From: Escherichia coli | Lineage (GTDB): Bacteria; Pseudomonadota; Gammaproteobacteria; Enterobacterales; Enterobacteriaceae | NCBI RefSeq assembly: GCF_048403405.1 | Contig: NZ_CP183129.1 | Strand: one strand, 5' to 3' | DNA: 64,000 bases | Shown here: in pieces, positions 1-47,230 of the stretch | Numbering within the stretch: the first letter of the stretch is position 1 | Layout of the letters: every line of letters starts with the position of its first letter | The notes under the pieces: generated by a model | Seen by the model: only the letters and a program-made list of their open reading frames with translations | Database searches by the model: none | What the model was told of the DNA's origin: nothing | Translations under genes and position numbers: made by a program

Positions 1-830
1 ATGACTGGTTGCTCTCTTTACCGCTGTTTCACGTCTCCGGTCAGGGAATTATGTGGCGCTGGTTATACGCTGGTGCGCGGATGACGGTACGTGATAAACA
101 GCCATTGGAGCAAATGCTGGCAGGCTGTACTCACGCTTCACTGGTGCCAACACAACTCTGGCGTTTGCTGGTTAACCGCAGTTCCGTTTCCCTGAAAGCG
201 GTGCTACTTGGCGGCGCGGCTATCCCGGTCGAGTTGACGGAACAGGCGCGCGAGCAGGGGATTCGTTGCTTTTGCGGCTATGGTCTGACCGAGTTTGCCT
301 CCACGGTGTGTGCGAAAGAAGCCGACGGTCTGGCAGACGTTGGTTCGCCGCTGCCGGGTCGGGAAGTGAAAATCGTTAATGATGAAGTGTGGCTGCGGGC
401 TGCCAGTATGGCTGAAGGTTACTGGCGTAACGGGCAACTGGTTCCACTGGTTAATGACGAAGGCTGGTACGCTACGCGCGATCGCGGTGAGATACATAAT
501 GGCAAGCTGACCATTGTCGGACGTTTAGATAATCTGTTCTTCAGTGGCGGTGAGGGTATTCAGCCGGAAGAAGTCGAGCGCGTTATTGCTGCACATCCTG
601 CGGTTTTGCAGGTGTTTATCGTCCCCGTTGCCGACAAGGAGTTTGGTCATCGGCCGGTAGCGGTGGTGGAGTATGACCAGCAAACCGTTGATCTTAGTGA
701 ATGGGTGAAAGATAAGCTGGCCCGTTTTCAGCAACCGGTGCGTTGGTTAACGCTGCCGCCTGAACTGAAAAACGGCGGCATTAAGATTTCACGTCAGGCG
801 CTAAAAGAGTGGGTGCAACGCCAGGATTAA
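1..830 (+). CDS. menE: o-succinylbenzoate-CoA ligase, 3' portion (5' end lies outside window)
   Basis: ORF 9..830 translation resembles the C-terminal part of an acyl-CoA synthetase; position next to pmrD and the arn operon matches E. coli synteny; open frame runs to the window edge. Confidence 0.75.
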   Translation, partial: DWLLSLPLFHVSGQGIMWRWLYAGARMTVRDKQPLEQMLAGCTHASLVPTQLWRLLVNRSSVSLKAVLLGGAAIPVELTEQAREQGIRCFCGYGLTEFASTVCAKEADGLADVGSPLPGREVKIVNDEVWLRAASMAEGYWRNGQLVPLVNDEGWYATRDRGEIHNGKLTIVGRLDNLFFSGGEGIQPEEVERVIAAHPAVLQVFIVPVADKEFGHRPVAVVEYDQQTVDLSEWVKDKLARFQQPVRWLTLPPELKNGGIKISRQALKEWVQRQD

Positions 831-872
831 GAAATCATTAGTTTCACTTCGCAATTTTGCCATTCCATTGCC

Positions 873-889
873 GTTGATAATAGGTTTAT
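873..889 (+). promoter_or_regulatory. candidate PhoP box (direct repeat GTTGAT-N5-GTTTAT) upstream of pmrD
   Basis: Hexamer direct repeat with 5-nt spacer about 50 bp upstream of the pmrD ATG; imperfect match to the (T/G)GTTTA-N5-(T/G)GTTTA consensus. Confidence 0.3.
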
Positions 890-939
890 CTGTTAATCTG
901 TAAATTAATGTGAAAATTCTTATCAAGCAGGGTGGTGCA

Positions 940-1206
940 ATGGAATGGCTGGTTAAAAAGTCATGCTGTGATAAACAAGATAACAGACATGTACTTAAGC
1001 TTTGTGATGCTGGTGGCACGATAAAAATGATCGCCGAAGTGAAGAGTGACTTCGCCGTGAAAGTGGGGGATTTACTCTCGCCTTTGCAGAATGCGCTTTA
1101 TTGTATTAATCGTGAAAAGCTGCATACGGTGAAAGTCCTCTCGGCAAGCAGTTATAGCCCCGATGAGTGGGAACGGCAGTGTAAAGTGGCAGGGAAAACT
1201 CAGTAA
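940..1206 (+). CDS. pmrD: PmrD connector protein (about 88 aa)
   Basis: ORF 910..1206 contains [10 protein letters not shown]... from its 11th codon, matching the remembered PmrD N-terminus; lies between menE and arnF. Confidence 0.7.
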
Positions 1207-1586
1207 CGTTGTTTTGTCGTGGGCAGGAAAATCAGCATCAACCCGCTCATAATACAGGCTACTCCCAGTAGTGCTTTCAGCGAAAAAGTCCCTTCCCAGC
1301 CGGGAAGTACCATTGAAGCAATCCATACCAGCACATAACTCATACTGAGCAAGGCATAGGCTTTGCTTAGTGCAAGTTTATGTAGTGTTTTATACCAACA
1401 AAAAACGGAAAGCAGATAACCCAGCAGCCCGAGTAACAGTATCCGGGCATCCAGGCCAAAAGCTAACAACGCCGCGATAAAATCCCATAAGTGCGTCATC
1501 GGCGGCAGATGACTCGCCGCAAAACCCAGGCTTAATTGCGCAGCGGAGGCGATAATGACGCTGAATAATCCCCACATCAGGCCCAT
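1200..1586 (-). CDS. arnF: undecaprenyl-phosphate-L-Ara4N flippase subunit ArnF
   Basis: Track ORF 1200..1868 (222 aa) fuses two genes; the 3' 128 codons starting [10 protein letters not shown] form a small four-helix membrane protein. Confidence 0.7.
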
Positions 1587-1921
1587 TACACGGTACTCCC
1601 GAGGATCACAATGCCACCAATAATGAACGCCACCCCACACCAGTGACGCGGCGATACCGGTTCGTGCCACAGTTTTACTGCAGCCAGCGTCACCCAGACA
1701 AAATTCAGACTTAACATCGGGTAGGCAATGCCTACCGGTACGTTCTGCAAGACCAGCAGCCAGAGCACCATGGCAAGACCAAGACAAGCCAGCGCCAGTC
1801 CCAGCCACAGCACGATATGTTTGCGCCGTTTGTTTATCGCCACAAAGCAGGTTGCCTGTTTCTGACACAACTGCCCGGCAACGCTAAGCAAGCTGGCAAA
1901 GACTAATGTTAGCCAGATCAT
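1586..1921 (-). CDS. arnE: undecaprenyl-phosphate-L-Ara4N flippase subunit ArnE
   Basis: 111-aa hydrophobic SMR-like ORF immediately downstream of arnT with overlapping stop/start. Confidence 0.75.
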
Positions 1922-3570
1922 TTGGGACGATACTGAATCAGCACCAGACGCTCCTGACGATCGATGGCATCTGCGGGCGGAATGGCGAGACTGTTGATAT
2001 CTTCATCGCGGTCAACCGAAAGCACGAGTGTAATAATCCCCTCCTGACGATGTTGATTAAGCCAGTTTGCGAACTCATCACCGCTGACAAATCTCCCTTT
2101 CGCATCCGGATAATTAAGGCCGTATTTCAACTCACCTGTCTGGCGATACATGATGATGTCATCGCGTTGCAGGCTCCATGCCAGACCTGCGGCAACACCG
2201 ACGCTATCAGTAAGAATATAGCGGCTTGGCTGAAGTGATTCTTGTGTCATCTCGACAAAAAATTGCGGATGTTTTCCTTCCATGACTCTGTCAGGAATTG
2301 AAAATCCTACCAGCAACGCCAGCCCCAGCGGGCAAAGCGCGGCAAAAGACCAGGTCTTTTCGACGTTTGTTAAGGTGTACCAGCCGAAAAATGCCCATAG
2401 CGAAAAAATCGACCAGGCACAAAAGACTTTATAGCTCTCGAAGGTTTGCCACACTGGCGTGTTCATTGGTCCCCAGGGGGAGACCACAAATGTGGCAATA
2501 ATGCCAGTGACACCAAAAGTGATGTTAATCCAGCCATTAATCCGCAGCGCCAGAGGATTATTTTTTGCTGCCAGCAAAGCGTAATGCGCCATCAGCATTG
2601 CCAGAGGTGCAAAGCAGGAAAGAATATAGGTGGGCAATTTGCCTTTAGCGACGGAGAAAAACAGCAGCGGCATTATCGTCCAGCTCAACAAATAGACGGT
2701 TGCGGAATGCTTGCGGTTTTTCCAGCCTGCGTACAGTGCTCCGGGGAGTAATCCCAGCCACGGCAGGCTACCGGCAATGATGACCGGCAAGTAGTACCAG
2801 AACGGAGCTCTATGCTGAGCATCATCCATTGCAAAGCGTTGAATATGCTCAACCCAGAAAAAATAGTGCCAGAAGTCAGGCTCCCGCTGCGCTATCGCCA
2901 GTCCCCAGGGGAGAACCGTCAGTACGCAACTGATAACCGCCAGCCAGCCGTAAATAAAGAGATCTTTCCAGCGTTTTTGCGTTGCAACCCATGGAAGCAC
3001 GCTTAATACCGGCACGGCAAGGGCGAGAAAACCTTTGGTCATCACCCCCATGCCGCAGGTGATTCCCAGCAGTAAAAATCCTGCGCTTTTGCCTTTCCAC
3101 GTCTGTGCCTGCATTGCCAGCCAGAAGCTGCACATTCCCGCCACCAGCCAGAAGGCAATAAACGGATCGAGCACGGCATAAGTGCCGATGGCATAGACAA
3201 TGAACAATGAGAGGTAAATCACTGCGGCGAGTAATGCCAGACGTTTATCGCGCCATAAGCGCAGAGTAAACCAGGCCACCAGCGCGGCAGTTAACAGGGT
3301 CGCAAAGATAACGCCTGCCCGCACACCAAAGTTATTTGCGCCAAATAGCCATTGCCCAATGCTGTTAATCCAGTATCCGGCAATGGGTTTTTCGAAATAA
3401 CGTAGCCCTAACAGATGGGGCACAATCCAGTCGCCGGATGCCAGCATTTCCCGACTGATTTCCGCATAACGCGTTTCATCGGGTTGCCAGAGCAGACGCG
3501 TGCTGATCGGTAACAGGTAATAGCAGGCAATAAACGCGAAGAGGCCGATAAGGTAACGTACCGATTTCAT
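1918..3570 (-). CDS. arnT: 4-amino-4-deoxy-L-arabinose transferase (lipid A modification)
   Basis: 550-aa polytopic membrane glycosyltransferase; overlaps arnD and arnE junctions. Confidence 0.9.
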
Positions 3571-29943: not shown

Positions 29944-32229
29944 TCAGATCTTACATGCGCCGCTTTCGCAGCCATCGTCCTGGATTGACGGTACCAGATC
30001 GTCCTGCGCGTCTTCAGCGCCGTCACGGGTGTTCTGATAATACAGCGTTTTGACCCCGAATTTGTAGGCGGTGAGCAGGTCTTTCAGCAGTTGCTGCATC
30101 GGCACTTTTCCTGACGGGAAGCGTGACGGATCGTAGTTGGTGTTAGCAGAGATCGACTGATCGATAAATTTCTGCATGATACCCACCAGTTGCAGATAGC
30201 CATCGTTACCCGGCATTTCCCACAGCAGTTCATAGGCGTCGTGCAGATGCTCGTAGTCCGGCACCACCTGGCGCAGAATACCGTCTTTCGACGCTTTGAT
30301 GCTGACGTAACCACGCGGCGGTTCAATACCGTTAGTGGCGTTAGAGATCTGCGAAGAGGTCTCGGACGGCATCAGAGCAGAAAGCGTGGAGTTACGCAGG
30401 CCGTGCGTTTTGATTGACTCACGCAGTGCTTCCCAGTCGTAATGCAGCGGCTCATTAGCGATGGCATCCAGATCTTTCTTATAGGTATCGATCGGCAGGA
30501 TCCCTTTCGCGTAAGTGGTTTCGTTAAACCACGGGCACGCGCCTTGCTCTTTCGCCAGCTCATTAGAGGCTTTCAGCAGGTAATACTGAATAGCTTCGAA
30601 GGTTTTATGCGTCAGGTTGTTGGCGCTGCCGTCGGAGTAGCGTTTACCGTGCTTCGCCAGGTAGTAAGCGAAGTTGATCACACCAATACCCAGCGTACGA
30701 CGACCCATCGCTCCACGTTTGGCGGCCGGGATCGGGTAATCCTGATAGTCCAGCAGCGCGTCGAGTGCGCGTACCGCCAGAATCGCCAGCTCTTCCAGTT
30801 CATCCAGGCTATTAATTGCACCCAGGTTGAAAGCAGACAGCGTACACAGCGCGATTTCACCGTTCTCGTCGTTGACATCATTCAGCGGTTTGGTCGGCAG
30901 GGCGATTTCCAGGCACAGGTTAGACTGGCGCACTGGCGCGATGGCCGGATCAAACGGGCTATGGGTATTGCAGTGGTCAACGTTCTGAATATAGATACGA
31001 CCGGTAGACGCACGTTCCTGCATCATCAGCGAGAACAGCTCAACGGCTTTCACACGCTGCTTGCGGATGCTGTCGTCTTTCTCATATTTGGTATACAGGC
31101 GTTCAAACTCTTCCTGATCGGCGAAGAACGCGTCGTACAGCCCCGGTACGTCGGACGGGCTGAACAGAGTGATATCTTCACCTTTCAGCAGACGGGTATA
31201 CATCAGTTTGTTGATTTGTACCCCGTAGTCCATATGACGCACGCGGTTGCCTTCAACCCCACGGTTGTTTTTCAAAACCAACAGGCTTTCCACTTCCAGA
31301 TGCCACATCGGGTAGAACAGCGTTGCCGCACCGCCGCGCACACCGCCCTGAGAGCAGGATTTCACCGCTGTCTGGAAATGTTTGTAGAACGGGATACAGC
31401 CGGTATGGAACGCTTCGCCACCGCGAATCGGGCTACCCAGCGCGCGAATACGCCCGGCGTTGATGCCGATCCCGGCACGCTGGGATACGTATTTAACAAT
31501 CGCGCTGGAGGTGGCGTTGATGGAATCCAGGCTGTCACCGCACTCGATCAGTACGCAGGAGCTGAACTGACGAGTCGGGGTACGCACGCCGGACATGATT
31601 GGCGTCGGCAGCGAAATTTTAAATGTGGAAACCGCGTCGTAAAAACGCTTCACATATTGCAGGCGCGTTTCACGCGGGTAGTTCGAGAACAGGCACGCGG
31701 CAACCAGAATATAAAGGAACTGGGCGCTTTCGTAGATTTCGCCGGTCACACGGTTCTGCACCAGATATTTGCCTTCCAGCTGTTTAACGGCAGCATAAGA
31801 GAAGGTCATATCACGGTCGTGATCGATAAACGTGTCCATCTGCTTGAACTCTTCTTCCGTGTAGTCTTCCAGCAGATGATTATCGTATTTGCCCATCTCG
31901 ACCATTTTCACCACGTGGTCGTACAGCGCAGGCGGCTCAAACTGGCCGTAGGCTTTTTTACGCAGGTGGAAGATCGCCAGGCGCGCGGCGAGATACTGAT
32001 AATCCGGCGCATCACGGGAGATCAGGTCTGCGGCAGCCTTGATAATGGTTTCGTGGATGTCAGAGGTCTTGATACCGTCATAAAACTGAATGTGGGAGCG
32101 CAGTTCGACCTGGGAAATCGAAACGTTATGCAGTCCTTCTGCCGCCCAATCCAGAACGCGATGGATTTTGTCGAGATTGATGCGCTCTGTGCTACCGTCG
32201 CGCTTTGTCACCAGCAGATTCTGATTCAT
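29944..32229 (-). CDS. nrdA: ribonucleoside-diphosphate reductase 1 alpha subunit
   Basis: 761-aa ORF beginning MNQNLLVTKRDGSTERINLDKIHRVLDWAAEGL (ATP-cone then RNR large subunit). Confidence 0.95.
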   Translation of the reverse strand: MNQNLLVTKRDGSTERINLDKIHRVLDWAAEGLHNVSISQVELRSHIQFYDGIKTSDIHETIIKAAADLISRDAPDYQYLAARLAIFHLRKKAYGQFEPPALYDHVVKMVEMGKYDNHLLEDYTEEEFKQMDTFIDHDRDMTFSYAAVKQLEGKYLVQNRVTGEIYESAQFLYILVAACLFSNYPRETRLQYVKRFYDAVSTFKISLPTPIMSGVRTPTRQFSSCVLIECGDSLDSINATSSAIVKYVSQRAGIGINAGRIRALGSPIRGGEAFHTGCIPFYKHFQTAVKSCSQGGVRGGAATLFYPMWHLEVESLLVLKNNRGVEGNRVRHMDYGVQINKLMYTRLLKGEDITLFSPSDVPGLYDAFFADQEEFERLYTKYEKDDSIRKQRVKAVELFSLMMQERASTGRIYIQNVDHCNTHSPFDPAIAPVRQSNLCLEIALPTKPLNDVNDENGEIALCTLSAFNLGAINSLDELEELAILAVRALDALLDYQDYPIPAAKRGAMGRRTLGIGVINFAYYLAKHGKRYSDGSANNLTHKTFEAIQYYLLKASNELAKEQGACPWFNETTYAKGILPIDTYKKDLDAIANEPLHYDWEALRESIKTHGLRNSTLSALMPSETSSQISNATNGIEPPRGYVSIKASKDGILRQVVPDYEHLHDAYELLWEMPGNDGYLQLVGIMQKFIDQSISANTNYDPSRFPSGKVPMQQLLKDLLTAYKFGVKTLYYQNTRDGAEDAQDDLVPSIQDDGCESGACKI

Positions 32230-32306
32230 GTATGTCGTACCTGTTTTTGGAATTCTTTCCGCAATAGTTTCATGCAGACTACCTGTAGTGAGGGAAGCTG
32301 CTTAGA

Positions 32307-32352
32307 ACACTATATATAGGGGGTATGTTTGGGATTCACTGCAAGATAGTGT
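32307..32352 (-). promoter_or_regulatory. candidate NrdR boxes in nrdAB promoter
   Basis: Two palindrome-like elements acactatatataggg and cactgcaagatagtgtg about 80-120 bp upstream of nrdA. Confidence 0.4.
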
Positions 32353-32382
32353 GAAAATGGCCCTCTTGCAAGTGCATAACTT

Positions 32383-32391
32383 TGTGGATAA
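32383..32391 (-). promoter_or_regulatory. DnaA box (TTATCCACA) upstream of nrdA
   Basis: Perfect 9-mer consensus on the minus strand (plus strand tgtggataa). Confidence 0.5.
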
Positions 32392-32924
32392 CTCAGGAAG
32401 GAAAAAGTGGCTTTCGCGCACCTTAGGTCAGACAAGGTGTCCGGGAAAGTCAATGGGAAGAGAAAAATTTGTTAAAAATAACTGTTCGGCGATTTCTTGA
32501 ACGGAAGAATAGGTTAGATAAATTGATATAGATGGTTTATTAATCTTTTGGCTAATGATTGCAAAAATTGATCTAAGCACGAGTCATCACATAATCTGAT
32601 GTATCAGTTCTGGTCAATATATAAGCGAATGTAAGCGATTGTTGATATCGAAATGGTTGTTTTCTCTTCGGTTGTTGTTAAATGCGAAGCCATTTTGTTA
32701 ATTTACCTTATATTATAAGAAAATTATTCATTACTTTAATTCAGTTTAAACATAACTGATATCCCTTAAGGTGATTAACTTGAATTATGACGCACTGATA
32801 TTATTCATGAAATAATAACAAAATAGCCATTGCACCGGGTTGAACAATTTACAAAAGAAAAATAACCCATATCGTATAATGCGATTAAATATGCCGTCTT
32901 ATAGAAAATGATGGTCAGATTAAT

Positions 32925-35900
32925 ATGCGGATTATTTTTCTACGCAAGGAGTATTTATCTTTACTCCCGTCAATGATTGCATCTCTTTTCTCTGCTAACG
33001 GTGTCGCGGCGGCCATTGATTCATGTCAGGGATATGATATCAAAGCGAGTTGTCACGCCAGCAGGCAAAGCCTTTCAGGCATTACGCAGGACTGGAGCAT
33101 CGCCGATGGGCAATGGCTGGTTTTTTCGGATATGACCAATAACGCCAGCGGTGGGGCCGTATTTTTGCAACAAGGAGCGGAGTTTTCTCTATCGCCAGAA
33201 AATGAAACTGGAATGACTCTGTTTGCCAATAATACTGTCTCAGGAGAATATAATAACGGCGGGGCAATATTTGCTAAAGAAAACTCAACGCTGAATCTTA
33301 CTAATGTTATTTTTTCCGATAACGTTGCAGGTGGCTATGGTGGCGCAATCTATTCTTCTGGTACTAACGATACCGGTGTCGTCGATTTAAGTGTCACTAA
33401 CGCCGTGTTTCGCAATAACATCGCTAATGACGGCAAAGGTGGTGCAATTTATACCATCAACAATGACGTCTATTTAAGTGAAGTTATTTTTGACAATAAC
33501 CAGGCATATACATCAACAAGTTACAGCGATGGCGATGGGGGCGCAATCGATGTCACCGATAATAATAGCGATATCACGCATCCGTCAGGTTTCACAATAA
33601 TAAATAACACCGCATTTACAAATAACACTGCCGAAGGTTATGGCGGGGCAATTTATACCAATAGCGTGACGGCTCCCTATCTTATTGATATTTCGATTGA
33701 TGACAGCTACAGCCAGAACGGCGGCGTGTTACTCGATGAGAACAATAGCGCGGCAGGTTATGGGGATGGTCCTTCCACTGCGGCGGGCGGCTTTATGTAT
33801 CTCGGCTTAAGTGAAGTTACCTTTGATATTGCCGACGGAAAAACGCTGGTTATCGGCAATACAGAGAATGACGGAGCTGTTGACTCTATTGCTGGTACCG
33901 GGGTAATCACCAAAACAGGTTCCGGCGATCTGGTACTTAATGCAGATAACAATGACTTTACTGGCGAGATGCAGATAGAAAACGGTGAAGTTACCCTGGG
34001 CCGCAGCAACTCCCTGATGAATGTCGGCGATACGCATTGCCAGGACGATCCGCAAGACTGCTACGGTCTGACGATAGGGAGTATTGATCAGTATCAGAAT
34101 CAGGCTGAGCTAAACGTTGGCTCGACCCAACAAACTTTTGTGCACGCATTGACGGGCTTTCAGAATGGCACTTTAAATATCGATGCTGGTGGCAACGTTA
34201 CTGTTAATCAGGGCAGTTTTGCTGGCACCATCGAAGGTGCTGGTCAGCTCACCATTGCGCAAAACGGCAGCTACGTGCTGGCAGGGGCGCAGTCGATGGC
34301 GCTAACCGGCGATATAGTCGTTGATGATGGCGCGGTGCTTACGCTGGAAGGCGACGCGGCAGATCTTGCCGCTCTCCAGGACGATCCGCAGTCGATCGTG
34401 TTAAACGGCGGTGTGCTCGATCTCTCTGATTTCTCCACCTGGCAGAGCGGTACATCATACAACGATGGCCTTGAAGTCAGCGGCAGCAGCGGAACGGTTA
34501 TCGGCAGTCAGGATGTGGTAGATCTTGCAGGCGGAAACGATATGCATATCGGCGGTGACGGGAAAGATGGCGTCTACGTGGTGGTCGATGCGGGCGACGG
34601 GCTGGTTAGCCTGGCAAACAATAATAGTTACCTGGGCACCACGCAAATCGCTTCCGGTACGCTGGTGGTGAGCGACAACTCGCAGCTTGGCAATACCGAC
34701 GAAAACCGTCAGCTCATCTTTACTGATAGCCAACAACAAAGTGAGATGGAAATTACCGCTGACGTTGATACTCGTTCAGAGGCAGCAGGTCACGGGCGTG
34801 ATATTGAAATGCGCGCCGACGGTGAAGTGGCGGTTGATGCGGGGGTAGACACGCAGTGGGGCGCACTGATGGCTGACAGCAGCGGGCAGCATCTGGATGA
34901 GGGTAGCACATTGACTAAAACGGGAGCGGGTACGCTGGAAATGACCGCCAGTGGTACGACGCAGTCGGCGGTACGTGTCGAAGAAGGCACGCTGCAAGGC
35001 GATGTTGCGGATATCTTCCCTTATGCTTCGTCGCTGTGGGTCGGTGACGGGGCAACGTTCAAGACTGGCGCGGATCAGGATATTCAGTCAATTGATGTTA
35101 CTTCCAGCGGCACTATCGACATCAGCGATGGTACGGTTTTGCGCCTGACCGGGCAGGATACTTCCGTCGCCCTTAATGCCTCACTGTTTAACGGCGATGG
35201 GACGCTGGTGAATGCTACTGATGGCGTGACGTTGACAGGCGAGCTTAATACCAACCTTGAAACTGACAGCCTGACCTATCTTGCCGACGTGACGGTTAAT
35301 GGTGATCTGACCAATACGTCCGGTGCGGTTAGCCTGCAAAATGGCGTCGCTGGCGATACGCTGACGGTAAACGGTGATTATACCGGCGGCGGTACGCTAC
35401 TGCTCGATAGCGAATTAAACGGCGATGACTCGGCAAGTGACCAACTGGTGTTGAACGGTAATACTGCTGGCAACACGACCGTGGTAATTAATCCCATTAC
35501 GGGTATTGGTGAGCCGACATCTACAGGTATTAAAGTGGTTGATTTCGCAGCCGAACCCACGCAGTTTCAAAACAATGCGCAGTTCAGTCTGGCGGGCAGC
35601 GGCTACGTCAATATGGGCGCGTATGACTACACGCTGGTGGAAGATAACAACGACTGGTATCTGCGATCGCAAGAAGTAACGCCACCATCGCCACCTGATC
35701 CAGACCCGACTCCCGATCCTGATCCCACGCCGGATCCTGATCCAACACCCGACCCGGAACCTACGCCTGCCTACCAGCCGGTGTTGAATGCCAAAGTTGG
35801 TGGATATTTTAATAACCTGCGGGCGGCAAATCAGGCGTTTGTGATGGAGCGACACGATCACGCTGGTGGCGATGGTCAGACGCTGAATTTACGTATTATC

Positions 35901-36677
35901 GGCGGAGATTATCATTACACAGCAGCGGGGCAACTGGCTCAGCATGAAGATACTTCTACGGTGCAGCTTAGCGGCGACTTGTTTAGCGGACGCTGGGGCG
36001 CGGATGGCGAGTGGATGCTTGGGGCGGTTGGTGGCTACAGTGATAACCAGGGCGACAGCCGCTCGAATATGACCGGAACTCGCGCCGATAACCAGAACCA
36101 CGGTTATGCCGTTGGTCTGACCTCAAGCTGGTTTCAGCACGGTAATCAGAAGCAGGGGGCCTGGCTGGATAGCTGGCTGCAATACGCGTGGTTTAACAAT
36201 GATGTTTCCGAACATGAAGATGGCGTGGATCATTACCACTCATCGGGGATTATCGCCTCGCTGGAAGCCGGGTATCAGTGGTTACCGGGGCATGGAGTGG
36301 TGATTGAACCACAGGCGCAGGTGATTTATCAGGGCGTGCAGCAGGATGATTTTACCGCCGCTAACCATGCGCGCGTGTCACAATCGCAGGGTGATGATAT
36401 TCAAACGCGGCTGGGTTTACACAGCGAATGGCGTACCGCTGTTCATGTCATACCATCATTAGATCTGAATTATTATCACGATCCCCATGCGACGGAAATT
36501 GAAGAAGATGGCAGCACTATCAGTGACGATGCGGTGAAGCAACGGGGTGAAATAAAAGTGGGAGTCACGGGCAATATCAGTCAGCGAGTTTCGCTGCGCG
36601 GCAGCGTGGCGTGGCAGAAAGGGAGTGATGATTTTGCCCAGACGGCAGGGTTTTTGTCGATGACGGTGAAATGGTAG
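32925..36677 (+). CDS. yfaL: autotransporter adhesin (AIDA-type) YfaL
   Basis: 1250-aa ORF: passenger with GGAIY-type repeats, proline-rich linker, C-terminal beta-barrel ending in W. Confidence 0.85.
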   Translation: MRIIFLRKEYLSLLPSMIASLFSANGVAAAIDSCQGYDIKASCHASRQSLSGITQDWSIADGQWLVFSDMTNNASGGAVFLQQGAEFSLSPENETGMTLFANNTVSGEYNNGGAIFAKENSTLNLTNVIFSDNVAGGYGGAIYSSGTNDTGVVDLSVTNAVFRNNIANDGKGGAIYTINNDVYLSEVIFDNNQAYTSTSYSDGDGGAIDVTDNNSDITHPSGFTIINNTAFTNNTAEGYGGAIYTNSVTAPYLIDISIDDSYSQNGGVLLDENNSAAGYGDGPSTAAGGFMYLGLSEVTFDIADGKTLVIGNTENDGAVDSIAGTGVITKTGSGDLVLNADNNDFTGEMQIENGEVTLGRSNSLMNVGDTHCQDDPQDCYGLTIGSIDQYQNQAELNVGSTQQTFVHALTGFQNGTLNIDAGGNVTVNQGSFAGTIEGAGQLTIAQNGSYVLAGAQSMALTGDIVVDDGAVLTLEGDAADLAALQDDPQSIVLNGGVLDLSDFSTWQSGTSYNDGLEVSGSSGTVIGSQDVVDLAGGNDMHIGGDGKDGVYVVVDAGDGLVSLANNNSYLGTTQIASGTLVVSDNSQLGNTDENRQLIFTDSQQQSEMEITADVDTRSEAAGHGRDIEMRADGEVAVDAGVDTQWGALMADSSGQHLDEGSTLTKTGAGTLEMTASGTTQSAVRVEEGTLQGDVADIFPYASSLWVGDGATFKTGADQDIQSIDVTSSGTIDISDGTVLRLTGQDTSVALNASLFNGDGTLVNATDGVTLTGELNTNLETDSLTYLADVTVNGDLTNTSGAVSLQNGVAGDTLTVNGDYTGGGTLLLDSELNGDDSASDQLVLNGNTAGNTTVVINPITGIGEPTSTGIKVVDFAAEPTQFQNNAQFSLAGSGYVNMGAYDYTLVEDNNDWYLRSQEVTPPSPPDPDPTPDPDPTPDPDPTPDPEPTPAYQPVLNAKVGGYFNNLRAANQAFVMERHDHAGGDGQTLNLRIIGGDYHYTAAGQLAQHEDTSTVQLSGDLFSGRWGADGEWMLGAVGGYSDNQGDSRSNMTGTRADNQNHGYAVGLTSSWFQHGNQKQGAWLDSWLQYAWFNNDVSEHEDGVDHYHSSGIIASLEAGYQWLPGHGVVIEPQAQVIYQGVQQDDFTAANHARVSQSQGDDIQTRLGLHSEWRTAVHVIPSLDLNYYHDPHATEIEEDGSTISDDAVKQRGEIKVGVTGNISQRVSLRGSVAWQKGSDDFAQTAGFLSMTVKW
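35683..35769 (+). repeat. tandem PDPDPT-encoding repeats in yfaL linker
   Basis: cc(t/c)gatcc(t/a)ga(t/c)cc.ac.cc repeated; translation PPSPPDPDPTPDPDPTPDPDPTPDPEPTP. Confidence 0.6.

Positions 36678-40382: not shown

Positions 40383-47230
<6,848 letters not shown>

Follow-up and report, generated by a model that had tools for sequence, protein, structure and literature searches.

The nrdA-yfaL interval of Escherichia coli as two adjoining control regions, with copies of the nrdA promoter segment in phage-plasmids

In Escherichia coli, nrdA (29944..32229, minus strand) and yfaL (32925..36677, plus strand) diverge from an intergenic gap of 695 bp (32230..32924). This locus raises the question of why the two genes lie so far apart, and whether a small RNA or a small protein is encoded between them. 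Positions are those of the window, that is, the whole stretch of 64,000 nucleotides that was analyzed (contig NZ_CP183129.1). The original prediction, made from the sequence without database searches, described a single long AT-rich regulatory interval carrying DnaA and NrdR sites, in which a small RNA or a small ORF would not have been seen.

Size, composition and conservation of the interval

The nrdA-yfaL gap was the longest of the 37 annotated gaps in the surrounding 50 kb (RefSeq annotation), the second longest being 307 bp, in agreement with the spacing of about 700 bp that had been claimed. The nrdA-yfaL stretch was found in 5423 of 5426 complete E. coli genomes, and 32130..33030 was 100% identical to the sequence of E. 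coli strain VCSW7. The strong AT-richness predicted for the yfaL side was confirmed: the GC content of the 421 bp at 32504..32924 was 29.2%, compared to 51.2% for the whole window, and was the minimum among all 421-bp windows. The homopolymer runs mentioned as a feature of this part were ordinary (two runs of 5). As predicted, no ORF of at least 60 aa was present in the gap; however, a 47-aa ORF, ypaB, is annotated there.

Comparison with E. albertii, E. whittamii, Escherichia sp. E1V33, another Escherichia representative, and a Pseudocitrobacter MAG revealed that the DNA homology extending from nrdA ends at approximately 32503. Up to this point, identity was 92-98% within the genus Escherichia and 83% in the Pseudocitrobacter MAG. 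Past it, DNA homology was undetectable between Escherichia species over 32504..32924, and YfaL was still encoded in the four Escherichia genomes with 67-79% amino-acid identity (the Pseudocitrobacter contig ends before YfaL could appear, and the YfaL comparison is thus one of four Escherichia genomes).

In E. coli, yfaL is located between ubiG and nrdA. The order gyrA-ubiG-nrdA without yfaL was observed in Salmonella, Enterobacter, Klebsiella aerogenes, Siccibacter, and Kluyvera. The ubiG-nrdA spacer was approximately 350 bp in the genera lacking yfaL, except in Kluyvera, where it was approximately 610 bp. Buttiauxella harbored a YfaL homologue (54% identity) at the same position. The conservation break and the yfaL-free gene order of the relatives indicate that the interval is made up of two components: an ancestral nrdA control region of approximately 275 bp, and approximately 420 bp of 5' DNA belonging to an adhesin gene that was inserted and evolves fast. 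The predicted length of the interval therefore stands, but its unity does not, as two regions are juxtaposed with a sharp break near 32503.

We conclude that the interval is very probably a pair of independent control regions placed back to back, one for nrdAB (32230..32503) and one for yfaL (32504..32924), and that neither hides a new gene. The anatomy, conservation, lack of coding and RNA signals, and synteny on which this conclusion is based were obtained in this analysis; protein binding and the direction of regulation were taken from the literature. The length and composition of the interval are explained because the control region of an essential gene abuts an H-NS-silenced adhesin promoter, both of which are known. 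The locus is already well described in the literature, and its reading in terms of DnaA, NrdR, and H-NS is essentially right apart from the functional NrdR boxes. The residual novelty is the extent and the conserved context of the promoter copy in phage-plasmids.

The nrdAB control region and ypaB

The promoter geometry was read from the sequence. On the minus strand, a -10 element TATCTT (32343..32348) is separated by a 17-bp spacer from a -35 element TTGCAA (32366..32371). Transcription of nrdA probably starts near 32336, 7 nt downstream of the -10, which would give a 5' untranslated leader of 32230..32336. A 13-bp deletion (32249..32261) was present in the leader of B2 strains. The perfect DnaA box that had been predicted at 32383..32391 was present on the minus strand as TTATCCACA (32391..32383), and is among the known nrdAB control sites. 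A second DnaA box, TTATGCACT (32379..32371), lies 3 bp from it on the same strand and abuts the -35. Both high-affinity boxes, spanning 32371..32391 near the core promoter, agree with the consensus TTATNCACA, and TTATCCACA occurred twice in the window against 0.33 expected.

Thirty-one distinct variants of the segment, from chromosomes and phage-plasmids, were compared. The last five bases of the -35 (TGCAA) and both DnaA boxes were invariant in all 31, although this invariance is partly by construction because the retrieval pattern itself contained both DnaA boxes and all but one of the six -35 bases. The invariant columns were xTGCAAGTGCATAA-NNN-TGTGGATAA, i.e., the -35 and the pair of DnaA boxes, whose 3-bp spacer varied. 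A genome-wide scan for the 21-mer containing both DnaA boxes also gave matches beyond Escherichia and one Pseudocitrobacter MAG; these were scattered over unrelated taxa and were taken as chance occurrences or replication-origin sites.

In the literature, nrdAB is activated or repressed by DnaA through these boxes: DnaA is an activator at low occupancy and a repressor when DnaA-ATP is abundant. Fis and IciA also regulate the promoter. The anatomy is consistent with leftward transcription that would be driven by the sigma-70 promoter (-35 TTGCAA, -10 TATCTT), with DnaA on the two boxes abutting the -35 expected, from these published results, to activate at low occupancy and to repress when DnaA-ATP is abundant. 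Fis, IciA, and HusR would act within the approximately 110 bp farther upstream of the DnaA boxes. This upstream activating region (32392..32503, minus strand), delimited by conservation and by sites from the literature, showed 92-98% identity across Escherichia species and about 83% in the Pseudocitrobacter MAG, and Salmonella, Klebsiella, and Buttiauxella had DNA homologous to its distal part upstream of nrdA. It includes an A/T tract (32463..32482, minus strand) and two proposed HusR (YnfL) boxes (32394..32409 and 32429..32444, minus strand), which we located here from a 2026 genomic SELEX study that reported a HusR peak at the nrdAB upstream region.

The DnaA boxes are located upstream of the -35 in Escherichia, in the Pseudocitrobacter MAG, and partly in Hafnia. 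Perfect TTATCCACA boxes, two in inverted orientation, were found in the nrdA leader beside NrdR box 1 in Salmonella, Enterobacter, Klebsiella, Kluyvera, and Buttiauxella, and one perfect box each in the leaders of Siccibacter and Pantoea. The stretch in which Escherichia departs from its relatives is roughly the stretch that is common to the phage copies described below, which may reflect either promoter modularity or an exchange.

Two NrdR palindromes had been predicted within 32307..32352. One of them, NrdR box 1 (32307..32322, minus strand; ACACTATATATAGGGG on the plus strand), was the only site in the window within 3 mismatches of the ideal palindrome, and was mostly kept across the aligned enterobacterial nrdA leaders, being weakest in Hafnia. 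The other (32337..32352, minus strand) overlaps the -10 and corresponds to the historical NrdR "box 0", for which NrdR binding is weak or absent (PMC12176259). The real partner of box 1 is NrdR box 2 (32276..32291, minus strand), a newly recognized, non-canonical box in the leader with a central AG that matches the oligonucleotide used in the same study; the 15-bp spacing between boxes 1 and 2 falls within the 15-16 bp of a two-box operator. The Kd of NrdR was approximately 100 nM for boxes 1 and 2 and >6000 nM for boxes 0 and 1 in this 2025 study (PMC12176259), and the functional operator is, on these published binding data, box 1 plus box 2. Compared to K-12, the present strain had two substitutions at the outer edge of box 2 (TCAC in place of GTAC).

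The remark that a small ORF might have gone unseen is answered by the existing annotation, since RefSeq already lists ypaB (32357..32500, plus strand, 47 aa), which overlaps the nrdA promoter on the opposite strand. If ypaB encoded a real 47-aa protein, with UpfO and Upf91.6 as its phage homologues, the sequence common to the phages would have been kept for that protein. This is very unlikely in our estimation, although RefSeq annotates the ORF in most E. coli genomes, most non-B2 strains (K-12, O157, and the present strain among them) have it intact, and an overlapping ORF is annotated in both P1 and P7. Across the 31 variants, substitutions in the ypaB frame showed no third-position excess (minimum substitutions of 29/36, 29/34, and 32/35 sites at codon positions 1, 2, and 3, respectively). 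The frame itself was repeatedly broken. Codon 18 was changed from TGG to the stop TGA in E. albertii and in the Escherichia sp. E1V33-type sequence; SSU5-like phage copies lacked the ATG, and most had a stop at codon 18 and one lineage at codon 14; another lineage (L009) had a stop at codon 35. In B2 E. coli the ATG is replaced by CTG, and RefSeq does not annotate the gene there. The length of a poly-A tract also varied, shifting the frame.

Sequence inspection found no Shine-Dalgarno sequence before the ypaB ATG, and YpaB and UpfO had no protein family matches in Pfam, NCBIfam, or PHROG. Database homologues of YpaB were limited to Escherichia/Shigella, one 27-aa fragment labelled Salmonella, and P7 Upf91.6, and tracked DNA homology only. 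Furthermore, the invariant positions coincide exactly with the -35 and the DnaA boxes and not with a set of codons, and upfO is dispensable in P1. Expression has nevertheless been assigned to ypaB: the signal increased >5-fold in stationary phase in a HusR-dependent manner by RT-qPCR (HusR study), and 9.6-fold after AZT in an RNA-seq study. These two studies indicate that some transcription across 32357..32500 exists. A CRISPRi study noted that ypaB "contains the promoter of nrdA". From the pattern of sequence change, ypaB is probably the reverse strand of the nrdA promoter and not a functional protein gene, and signals assigned to it are then read as nrdA promoter activity or divergent transcription. 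This bears on current resources, because RefSeq and EcoCyc-type annotation still list ypaB, and expression and SELEX tables treat it as a "gene".

The AT-rich region upstream of yfaL and the search for small RNAs

The AT-rich region upstream of yfaL (32504..32924, plus strand; 29% GC) is a published promoter island. Its K-12 equivalent is island 2342143_534 yfaL/ypaB, one of 78, which was H-NS-bound in every ChIP study compared and was associated with genes predicted to be foreign (Panyukov and Ozoline 2013). The prediction of an H-NS-silenced adhesin promoter on this side is thus backed by the published listing of an H-NS-bound island at the K-12 locus. An island of this type is expected to be strongly AT-rich and to precede a gene gained by horizontal transfer; here, the GC content was 29.2%, and yfaL was missing from this position in six other genera. 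A candidate -10 (TATAAT) was present at 32875..32880 on the plus strand. The high-affinity H-NS motif TCGATAAATT was represented by one site with 1 mismatch at 32515, and its count in the window (9 against 4.8 expected) was uninformative. In four E. coli phylogroups, 4-14 variable sites per 50 bp were observed in the AT-rich part, and 1-3 in 32280..32480. According to the literature, yfaL (EhaC) is an autotransporter adhesin gene, and its AT-rich 5' DNA would be coated by H-NS, keeping yfaL silent.

A long region of this kind might also encode an unannotated small RNA or small protein, and a two-hexamer sigma-70 scan of the AT-rich part found six promoter-like sites (3.5 ± 2.0 expected). The literature on promoter islands describes RNA polymerase binding with short abortive products. 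A scan of the interval found no terminators, including in 32504..32924, and an Rfam search at E-values up to 10 gave only spurious matches to snoRNA and viral families below gathering scores, those in the AT-rich part being to snoRNAs. Small ORFs of 20-29 aa were present in this part; most of those that could be located in other E. coli strains were interrupted by stop codons there. Within E. coli, this region is also conserved less than any other part of the interval, and it cannot be aligned between Escherichia species. A small RNA or small protein encoded in 32504..32924 is therefore very improbable.

Folding of the promoter-proximal segment gave a similar result. The consensus fold of the 141 nt common to the phage copies (ten lineages) had an energy of -5.1 kcal/mol with a covariation term of -0.07, and the single-sequence fold of the E. 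coli segment was no better than shuffled sequences (z = -0.88). A stem that appeared compensatory between E. coli (CACCTT/AAGGTG) and P1 (CACGGC/GCTGTG) failed in the SSU5-like variants. A small regulatory RNA, recognizable by its own promoter and terminator, a conserved fold, or a known family, was not found in the interval. A small RNA or small protein that might have gone unseen left no sign in these searches, ypaB evolves as non-coding DNA, and the suggested search for conserved secondary structure, made on the 141-nt segment, returned none. These results agree with the preferred reading of two adjoining control regions.

Copies of the nrdA promoter segment in phage-plasmids and comparison with known systems

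The segment 32343..32482, which corresponds to "upfO" and the "nrdA-like promoter with dnaA box" of P1, is common to P1-, P7-, and SSU5-like phage-plasmids. A stretch from 32343 or 32353 to 32467 or 32482 recurred in 318 PLSDB plasmids and 15 phage records, and the carriers were P1, P7, SJ46, and SSU5/pLF82-like phage-plasmids. The homologous stretch is 115-140 bp long: it begins at the -10 or in the promoter spacer and reaches about -145. Over 32367..32482, identity to Escherichia ranged from 66 to 95% among the compared lineages (at least four sequence lineages). A pattern search of IMG/VR matched 74 contigs, 71 of which carried phage-plasmid copies. One contig (L030) was rejected as a further copy; it shares only a 25-nt core beside a phage primase/helicase gene and is unrelated.

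The -10 hexamer was identical in the SSU5-like copies, and the P1/P7-like copies had a different -10-like sequence at the same place. No phage copy retained a full NrdR box, and part of box 0 was kept only in the SSU5-like copies. Every IMG/VR copy with enough flanking DNA was located between a leftward ORF encoding a 45-aa hydrophobic product and hot and/or humD. In P1/P7-type elements, the putative leftward promoter is followed by this ORF, which is unannotated (2094..2231, minus strand, in P1 locus L003). The 45-aa ORF kept the same length and pattern of hydrophobicity at 58-60% identity. In SSU5-like elements, humD is preceded by a LexA box, and a bidirectional terminator was located approximately 60 nt past the -10.

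This distribution and context suggested that the segment could be a mobile regulatory cassette that serves phage-plasmids in its own right, an idea that is compatible with the explanation given above for the interval and that we regard as possible but doubtful. Such a cassette would drive a leftward operon with the 45-aa membrane protein, and it might also set hot/humD expression, or titrate DnaA, in line with the DnaA-ATP state of the host. The number and diversity of the copies, their constant neighbors, the conservation of the 45-aa ORF, and the absence of a full NrdR box from all of them are consistent with this idea. The -35 and both DnaA boxes also remained invariant while the flanks drifted, but for the core this is partly a product of the IMG/VR retrieval pattern. 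Exchange with phages could also explain the differing DnaA-box position of Escherichia; Salmonella, Klebsiella, Enterobacter, Buttiauxella, and others have two inverted TTATCCACA boxes in the leader (Pantoea has one), and Hafnia resembles Escherichia in this respect.

Other observations point toward the chromosome as the source. In the identity matrix, the P7 and SSU5-like copies were each nearer to Escherichia chromosomes than to each other, a pattern that fits repeated capture or gene conversion and not an independent phage function. The distal segment was homologous to nrdA upstream DNA of all the enterobacteria examined, which favors the chromosome as donor and the phage as recipient. For these two reasons, we prefer an origin by capture of host DNA or by repeated gene conversion from it. 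Moreover, upfN, upfO, and hot are non-essential for lytic growth of P1, and this part of P1-like plasmids has been classed as "highly variable", both of which speak against a cassette with its own role. Phage-plasmids appear to have taken the promoter/DnaA-box core from the host chromosome, and they may use it as a DnaA-responsive promoter.

It is rather unlikely, judging from sequence comparison, but conceivable that the nrdAB core promoter and the DnaA-box pair form a portable DnaA-responsive cassette, free of full NrdR boxes in the P1, P7, and SSU5/pLF82-like lineages, which may tie the 45-aa gene, hot/humD, or DnaA availability to the host replication cycle and whose exchange may account for the box position in Escherichia. 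The phage-plasmid copies offer an example, open to experiment, of a replication-cycle sensor that a phage may have borrowed, and the nrdA promoter/DnaA-box module is far commoner in phage-plasmids than had been suggested by a 56-bp note on P1.

That note belongs to the nearest known counterpart of the copies. GenBank M95666 (P1) carried the annotations "nrdA-like promoter" and "dnaA box" in 1993, and the P1 genome record of 2004 noted, over 56 bp overlapping upfO, 94% identity to E. coli DNA that carries two DnaA boxes. The homology and the DnaA boxes are the same as those described here, in the region of hot, humD, phd, and doc; in contrast to the 56 bp of the P1 note, the homology really extends over 115-140 bp and is also present in P7-, SJ46-, and SSU5/pLF82-like phage-plasmids.

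[quoted passage not shown] 2010), with the -35, the -10, and the two DnaA boxes at the published sequences and no functional difference in the present strain. NrdR boxes 0, 1, and 2 were likewise at their published sequences (Torrents 2007; Rozman Grinberg et al. 2025). The density of promoter-like sites upstream of yfaL showed a modest excess by our simple two-hexamer scan, which on its own falls short of reproducing an island density; another algorithm had been used to define the published island. Compared to the nrdAB promoters of Salmonella and other Enterobacteriaceae (Panosa et al. 2010), NrdR box 1 and a distal block (GTCAAT ... GATTTCTT.A.CG) were homologous. In those other Enterobacteriaceae, the TTATCCACA boxes are located in the leader and flank the position of NrdR box 2, whereas the boxes of Escherichia are located upstream of the -35.

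Predicted transcription units of the phage-plasmids

The nrdA-like promoter is the copy of the nrdA core promoter and two DnaA boxes found in P1-, P7-, and SSU5-like phage-plasmids. In P1 (NC_005856), an unannotated hydrophobic ORF of 45 aa (MTAFFQFLSAFLDAPVISQILAIILIIVLILLLRSVKNGIMHWLT) was located at 2094..2231 on the minus strand, opposite the annotated upfM and approximately 300 nt downstream of the leftward promoter. Equivalents were present in L002, L011, L012, and L025, and the ORF was found in 49 of the 74 IMG/VR contigs matching the promoter pattern. Its length was unchanged in a diverged lineage, with an identity of 58–60%. Comparison with Pfam matched no family, and the match to PHROG 1184 was no more than marginal (E = 0.056).

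In the SSU5/pLF82-like plasmids, a bidirectional intrinsic terminator was observed approximately 60 nt past the -10 element of the leftward promoter, and humD was preceded by a LexA box (TACTGTATGTGTATACAGTA); in L006, these features lay at 1405..1445 and 1735..1760. This promoter and terminator would yield a transcript of approximately 80 nt.

One contig, L020 (IMGVR_UViG_2778261537_000017), was chimeric, running from E. coli nrdA through the shared element into P7-like DNA with humD. Another contig of the same genome, L076 (_000004), terminated within the shared element, with the 45-aa ORF to its left. These structures reflect either an integrated P7-like plasmid, with the shared 130-bp segment as the site of homologous recombination, or an assembly mis-join at the repeat.

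Strain variation in the nrdA leader and ypaB

The B2-phylogroup E. coli strain EcPF7 carried a 13-bp deletion (GGAATTCTTTCCG) in the nrdA 5' leader (window 32249..32261) and a change of the ypaB start codon from ATG to CTG (window 32357). The outer margin of NrdR box 2 (window 32290..32291) read GA in the window strain and the B2 strain and AC in K-12 and O157.

The nrdA upstream region in other genera

In Buttiauxella (L136), a 1301-aa YfaL homologue (1..1799, minus strand; 54% identity to YfaL over approximately 600 aa) was encoded divergently from nrdA, with approximately 700 bp between the two genes. Thus, the yfaL-nrdA arrangement is not restricted to Escherichia.

A second perfect DnaA box (TTATCCACA) was present in the window at 45661..45669 on the minus strand. 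Positions of approximately 2400..2500 in the nrdA loci L128–L132, L135, and L136 were compared with window 32270..32400. The nrdA leaders of Salmonella, Enterobacter, Klebsiella, Kluyvera, and Buttiauxella contained two inverted perfect DnaA boxes adjoining NrdR box 1, and those of Siccibacter and Pantoea contained only one perfect box. In Escherichia, unlike these genera, the DnaA boxes were located upstream of the -35 element rather than in the leader, and the layout in Hafnia resembled that of Escherichia.
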